Shown here: positions 421 through 436 of the stretch, one piece after another
How the letters are laid out: each line of letters begins with the position of its first letter
How positions within the stretch are numbered: position 1 is the stretch's first letter
From: Escherichia coli
GTDB taxonomy: Bacteria; Pseudomonadota; Gammaproteobacteria; Enterobacterales; Enterobacteriaceae
Assembly (NCBI RefSeq): GCF_003334405.1
Contig: NZ_QOWM01000001.1
Length of the DNA stretch: 64,000 nt
Reading direction: 5' to 3' (one strand)
Notes under the pieces: model-generated
The model's database searches: none
What the model was told of the DNA's origin: nothing
The model's input: the letters and a program-made list of their open reading frames with translations, nothing else
Position numbers and translations under genes: made by a program

Positions 421-436
421 ACGCAAACGTGTGCGT
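421..436. promoter_or_regulatory. Candidate PurR operator (pur box) upstream of purC
   Basis: acgcaaacgtgtgcgt matches the palindromic pur-box consensus ACGCAAACGTTTGCGT at 15 of 16 positions; lies about 150 bp upstream of the purC start. Confidence 0.5.

Follow-up and report, generated by a model that had tools for sequence, protein, structure and literature searches.

The intergenic region between bamC and purC of Escherichia coli contains a 16-bp near-palindrome, at positions 421-436 of the 64,000-nucleotide stretch of DNA analyzed here (the window), and this raises the question of whether it is the site through which PurR represses purC and how it is placed with respect to the purC promoter. 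PurR is a dimeric protein of the LacI family, and the product of purC, SAICAR synthetase, acts in de novo purine synthesis. Purified PurR is said, in work by He and colleagues from 1990, to have bound specifically to each pur operator, that of purC included. A preliminary description of the window, made from its letters, had proposed the near-palindrome as a PurR operator for purC, and the present analysis follows up this proposal.

Genomic Context of the Palindrome

Over positions 1-1400, the window matches E. coli K-12 MG1655 with 100% identity, and this segment occurs in every one of the 5,426 complete E. coli genomes. The open reading frame at 24-377 (+ strand), which ends at 377, is the 3' end of bamC, encoding an outer membrane protein assembly factor and named from RefSeq on the identical MG1655 sequence. 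The regulated gene is represented by the purC coding sequence at 590-1303 (+ strand), as given both by the list of open reading frames and by the RefSeq annotation of the identical sequence. Between the two genes, a terminator scan and RNA folding place the intrinsic terminator of bamC at 384-411 (+ strand); this consists of a 9-bp stem-loop at 384-405 and a T-run, and the hairpin at 384-405 is dominant in the RNA fold of 378-445. In other genera, the hairpin and T-run are kept at the same place as the bamC terminator. The palindrome starts about 10 nt past the T-run, without overlapping the terminator, and its end at 436 is 154 nt from the annotated purC ATG at 590. The preliminary description had located the site in the bamC-purC spacer, upstream of purC and just downstream of the bamC terminator, and these coordinates bear out both statements.

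Match to Known PurR Sites

The sequence read at exactly 421-436 is acgcaaacgtgtgcgt, which differs from the perfect palindrome ACGCAAACGTTTGCGT only in the replacement of T11 by G, so that the earlier count of 15 matches in 16 positions was correct. It agrees with the ChIP-derived consensus ACGNAAACGTTTGCNT at 13 of the 14 specified positions and has the traits of accepted PUR boxes, being a 16-bp imperfect palindrome with a central CG step that fits this consensus. No other sequence in the 64-kb window comes within three mismatches of the PUR-box palindrome, and none of 100 dinucleotide-preserving shuffles of the window contained any match with one mismatch or fewer. The preliminary description had also named a scan with a PurR weight matrix as a check on its proposal. 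With a matrix derived from 27 PurR motifs tabulated by Cho et al. 2011 (Table 1), purC being excluded, 421-436 is the top match in the window, scoring 19.5 bits after symmetrisation of the matrix and 18.6 bits when the sites are used as listed, and the runner-up scores 13.9 bits. Convolution of the score distribution gives a probability of 1.35e-7 per single position for a score of 19.5 bits, and the expected number of such matches is 0.009 per 64 kb and 2.7e-5 per 212-nt bamC-purC spacer; the score was attained in 11 of 1000 shuffles of the window. The PurR box at 421-436 is thereby confirmed as real and as no chance match.

The next matches to the matrix, at 39425-39440 (13.9 bits) and 39672-39687 (about 10-11 bits), lie inside the coding regions of ypeA and yfeZ, and their scores are at chance level for 64 kb.

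Published Evidence for PurR Binding at This Site

Previously, the PurR regulon of E. coli has been mapped by ChIP-chip (Cho et al. 2011, PMC3159470), and Table 1 of that study gives a single PurR motif for the purC unit, ACGCACACGTTTGCGT, at 2,595,794-2,595,809. Its reverse complement is exactly the sequence at window positions 421-436. With the purC ATG at 2,595,640, the published motif precedes the ATG by 154 nt, as the box does in the window, and the documented K-12 site and the present one are therefore the same object, identical in sequence, in distance to the ATG, and in context. The site at 421-436 is accordingly the already documented purC PurR operator and is not novel. The published record lists the motif at exactly the position proposed in the preliminary description, which had let its proposal stand or fall on whether a documented purC site lay elsewhere. 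Cho et al. cite Meng 1990 and Tiedeman 1990 for the purC site, include purC among the genes of the IMP pathway that are repressed by PurR-hypoxanthine, and report a ChIP-chip peak at purC with a log2 enrichment of 2.08 with adenine and 1.52 without; it should be noted that this peak is about 2 kb wide and that its assignment to the 16-mer rests on the motif.

The region upstream of purC is also a worked example in an IPOD-HR study from 2021 (PMC8282354), in which a footprint at the PurR site was seen in rich medium but was gone in minimal medium or when purR was deleted, and in which RNA polymerase occupancy at purC was higher in the purR deletion. A PurR site is also depicted in the nlpB(bamC)-purC spacer in a Salmonella study. 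The 16-mer as a literal string had no match in the literature text searched, and PMC2577325 and PMC6375646 contain nothing about a PurR site of purC. For this exact sequence, the published data establish two properties by which a PUR box is recognized, namely in vivo occupancy by PurR that depends on purines and on purR and repression of the downstream purC by PurR and purines as part of the IMP pathway, and they also supply the start site (Kim et al. 2012).

Position of the Operator in the purC Promoter

The supplementary table of Kim et al. 2012 contains one start for purC, 2,595,803 on the minus strand, supported by 24 reads in this single data set, together with a 5' untranslated region of 163 nt and an upstream 51-mer that ends ...CTGATATGATACGCAAA. 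Mapped onto the window, this start is position 427 (+ strand), the third A of the PUR box, and with the annotated ATG it defines a 163-nt leader at 427-589 (+ strand). On the basis of this published entry, the PUR box ACGCAAACGTGTGCGT (421-436, assigned to neither strand), for which sequence statistics, the ChIP-chip motif, IPOD-HR and conservation provide the evidence, covers -6 to +10 of the purC promoter. Since the start in the Kim et al. entry is inside the box, the operator overlaps the promoter and is not merely upstream of it. The sequence TGaTATGAT at 412-420 (+ strand), which is 7 nt upstream of that start and adjoins the box, reads as an extended -10 element, and from this we infer its role as the purC -10. 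The expected -35 position falls on the stem of the bamC terminator and is a poor match to the consensus. A standard -35/-10 scan of positions 300-700 found no canonical promoter, as is expected for a promoter of the extended -10 type.

In most respects, the purC box resembles other operators of the pur regulon. Those of purF, purT, purL, purMN, purHD and purEK are likewise 16-bp near-palindromes with a central CG and half-sites of the AAACGTTTGC type, the score of 19.5 bits for purC is inside the range of 10-24 bits spanned by the sites listed by Cho et al. 2011, and operators of the regulon, like the purC box, overlap the promoter of a purine biosynthesis gene. Two features set the purC box of E. 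coli apart, namely G for T at position 11 and a location downstream of the -10 and over the start site; Cho et al. (PMC3159470) state that PurR sites are generally between the -35 and -10, although by their own count of start sites this holds for only 14 of 32 regions. With respect to their purC entry, what the Kim et al. start adds is only the span of the box from -6 to +10.

We consider it almost certain that 421-436 is the operator by which PurR switches off purC. When hypoxanthine or guanine is plentiful, the complex of PurR with its corepressor would bind the 16-bp near-palindrome and would cover the start site together with the downstream end of the -10, and PurR bound at the promoter would then compete with RNA polymerase so that initiation is blocked. 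When purines are low, loss of the corepressor would cause PurR to leave, and purC could be transcribed with the 163-nt leader indicated by the Kim et al. entry. Steric exclusion of RNA polymerase from the purC promoter is the most likely mode of action, as judged from the geometry, because the box covers the start site and adjoins the extended -10. This is in line with a review in which most PurR sites are said to overlap promoters and with the raised polymerase occupancy in the purR deletion. None of the results spoke against the identification of 421-436 as a PurR operator.

Conservation among the Enterobacterales

Loci containing purC were collected with a degenerate pattern of purC codons 27-37, with one genome per species, so that the sample is independent of the box; at least 120 Enterobacterales loci were returned, and 116 had usable upstream sequence. 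Among the matches listed, a PurR-matrix match of at least 15 bits is present within 400 nt upstream of the purC ATG in 89 of the 116 loci, and the same criterion was reached in 8 of 5800 shuffled controls. Exactly the same 16-mer is found at 56 of the listed loci, from about 20 named genera, including Escherichia, Salmonella, Citrobacter, Enterobacter, Klebsiella, Raoultella, Kluyvera and Kosakonia, as well as Pluralibacter, Leclercia, Siccibacter, Buttiauxella, Cedecea and Phytobacter. Over the 16 nt on either side of these 56 boxes, majority identity is 69% and 60%, respectively, among the matches listed, in which variants of the box are few (A7T in Atlantibacter, A1C in Shimwellia). Enterobacter sp. 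BIGb0383 has the exact mirror image, ACGCACACGTTTGCGT, 100 nt before the purC ATG, with the departure from the palindrome in the other half-site.

The Erwiniaceae (Pantoea, Rosenbergiella, Tatumella and Mixta) also have a strong PurR box (18.5-22 bits) upstream of purC and after the bamC terminator. The distance from this box to the purC ATG is about 64-84 nt, and a conserved tGGCATAAT precedes it by about 11 nt, but its sequence, AGGTAAACGATTGCGT or AAGTAAACGATTGCGT, is not that of the E. coli box.

No match of at least 15 bits was found within 400 nt upstream of purC in 27 of the 116 loci among the matches listed, those without a strong box including Pectobacterium, Brenneria, Symbiopectobacterium, Serratia, Mangrovibacter, Winslowiella, Tenebrionibacter and others. 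Many of the box-less loci share a leader GCGTTAAAT with a short GC hairpin and then CAC..TGGAG right before the start codon. Cedecea neteri and a few other strains have only a degenerate PurR-like palindrome, GCGCAAGCGATCGCTA, which scores 8.2 bits at -33, and the sequence that ends about 45-50 nt before the purC ATG in these (...gcagcttgaagtatgacgggta) resembles an ERIC-type intergenic repeat.

A 44-nt query around the box reveals polymorphism within E. coli. In an alignment of five E. coli sequences, differences occur at 438-439, at 443, within the loop of the terminator, and farther along the leader (453 and 478), and the box and TGaTATGAT are unchanged in all five.

Alternative Explanations for the Palindrome

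Short GC-rich palindromes arise randomly, and the 11 shuffles of the whole window that attain the score of this one illustrate that a sequence of its quality can appear somewhere in 64 kb by accident; however, the relevant expectation, for a 212-nt spacer upstream of a purine gene, is lower by far (2.7e-5, see above), the 16-mer is invariant over about 20 genera with diverged flanks among the matches listed, and occupancy of the site in vivo has been published. Conservation, ChIP and IPOD-HR together refute, for practical purposes, a palindrome that arose by chance and has no regulatory role, and the probability left to this explanation is minute. No more credible is the proposal that the palindrome acts as RNA, as a hairpin for bamC termination or as a leader structure, rather than as protein-binding DNA. 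Its arms can pair in read-through RNA, according to the minimum-energy fold of 378-445, but positions 415-442 alone fold with -5.2 kcal/mol (z = -0.02), and 92 of 200 shuffles fold equally well; the true terminator hairpin is that at 384-405, and the purC start given by Kim et al., at 427, is inside the palindrome, so that purC mRNA contains the 3' arm only. A role of the box as an RNA hairpin was rejected because its fold is no better than those of shuffled sequences. A search of Rfam gave no curated RNA family at the box and one chance match, to HCV.

Two further explanations leave the palindrome as protein-binding DNA. RbsR, another LacI-family regulator, has been reported to influence purine genes, and a central CG and AAACGTTT-like cores are common to LacI-family operators; the invariance across genera of C4, G11 and G15, which are degenerate in the matrix, also hints at a constraint beyond that described by the PurR matrix. 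It is nevertheless very unlikely that the site serves mainly a second regulator of this kind, with PurR in a secondary role: deletion of purR abolishes the footprint upstream of purC, the region is enriched in PurR ChIP, the score of the site is mid-range among accepted PurR sites, and no evidence in support of a second factor was found. The other explanation concerns an additional function, compatible with repression at the promoter, in which PurR bound at the box would also act as a roadblock to transcripts that read through from dapA-bamC into purC. The box is about 10 nt after the T-run of the terminator, and PurR acts in this way at purB and purR (Cho et al. 2011, PMC3159470, and a review). 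The operators of purB and purR share the protein and the motif with the purC box but are far downstream of the start, in the transcribed or coding region, and block elongation, whereas the purC box is at the site of initiation, and the bamC terminator looks strong, with 9 bp (6 GC) and a T-run. Such a supplementary roadblock is thus rather unlikely, although it merits more weight than the explanations considered above.

Leader Length and Promoter Position in Different Genera

The PUR box of purC is textbook knowledge as part of the E. coli pur regulon, and its identification in the window has little value as a discovery; its use is as a positive control, in that a reader without tools recognized a real operator from sequence, with the right coordinates and the right regulator. 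A small evolutionary detail is added by the comparison between genera, in which the box is frozen, the length of the leader has changed, through a REP insertion in Escherichia, and the position of the promoter has probably changed.

In most genera, the purC ATG follows the start of the box by 65-69 nt, but by 168-169 nt in Escherichia and in one strain labelled Enterobacter sp. JUb54; in Salmonella arizonae this distance is 142 nt, and in Kluyvera it is 130-134 nt. A repeat finder and alignment identify an insert of about 100 nt in the leader, at 459-574 (+ strand), that contains a REP-like palindrome with arms at 495-507 and 510-522, and Rfam gives a sub-threshold match to naRNA4 (REP) at 493-537. 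The 1400-nt query (positions 1-1400), which includes the insert, matches a median of 4 places per E. coli genome. Copies of a duplicated leader motif, CGGTAATTCGCAC (459-471) and CGTTAATTCACAC (562-574), flank the insert, which is common to E. coli and E. albertii; S. arizonae has a shorter and different insert at the same spot. In the alignment, Citrobacter and Pseudocitrobacter are without the insert and contain the motif only once, with a gap of 49-51 nt between the box and the ATG. The insert is in the same transcript as purC and is outside the operator.

With respect to the promoter, the best -10 match is 5' of the box in Escherichia, Citrobacter, Kluyvera and Raoultella, and a -10-like hexamer is also 5' of the box in Salmonella, but the best -10 match is 3' of the box in Enterobacter, Leclercia and Silvania. 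In Enterobacter cloacae (8221-8249 of the sampled locus), the match has the form GTGCCA-17 nt-(TG)gCATAAT, with the identical box in the spacer, and GTGCCA-17 nt-(TG)gCATAAT is the best promoter match in Leclercia, Silvania and Pseudenterobacter also. These predicted elements suggest, tentatively, that the operator may have stayed fixed while the promoter moved around it, a possibility to which we would give appreciable weight but somewhat less than an even chance. If this is true, start of transcription in Enterobacter would be about 7 nt after GGCATAAT, downstream of the box, as opposed to inside it in E. coli, and the locus would illustrate neatly, in nature, how a promoter can turn over around a repressor site that does not change. 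Such a history might also account for the fixation of every one of the 16 positions in about 20 genera, among them G11, which departs from the consensus, and C4 and G15, which are degenerate in the matrix.

One E. coli strain, ETEC1701 (NZ_CP122938.1, 1349163-1349281), differs from other E. coli in the sequence 5' of TTCTGATATGAT, where another hairpin, CCTCCGGCTATGCCGGAGG, is present and the annotation shows no bamC within 40 nt. Both the box and the extended -10 are preserved in this strain, and the pattern suggests a rearrangement or insertion that may end just upstream of the purC -10.
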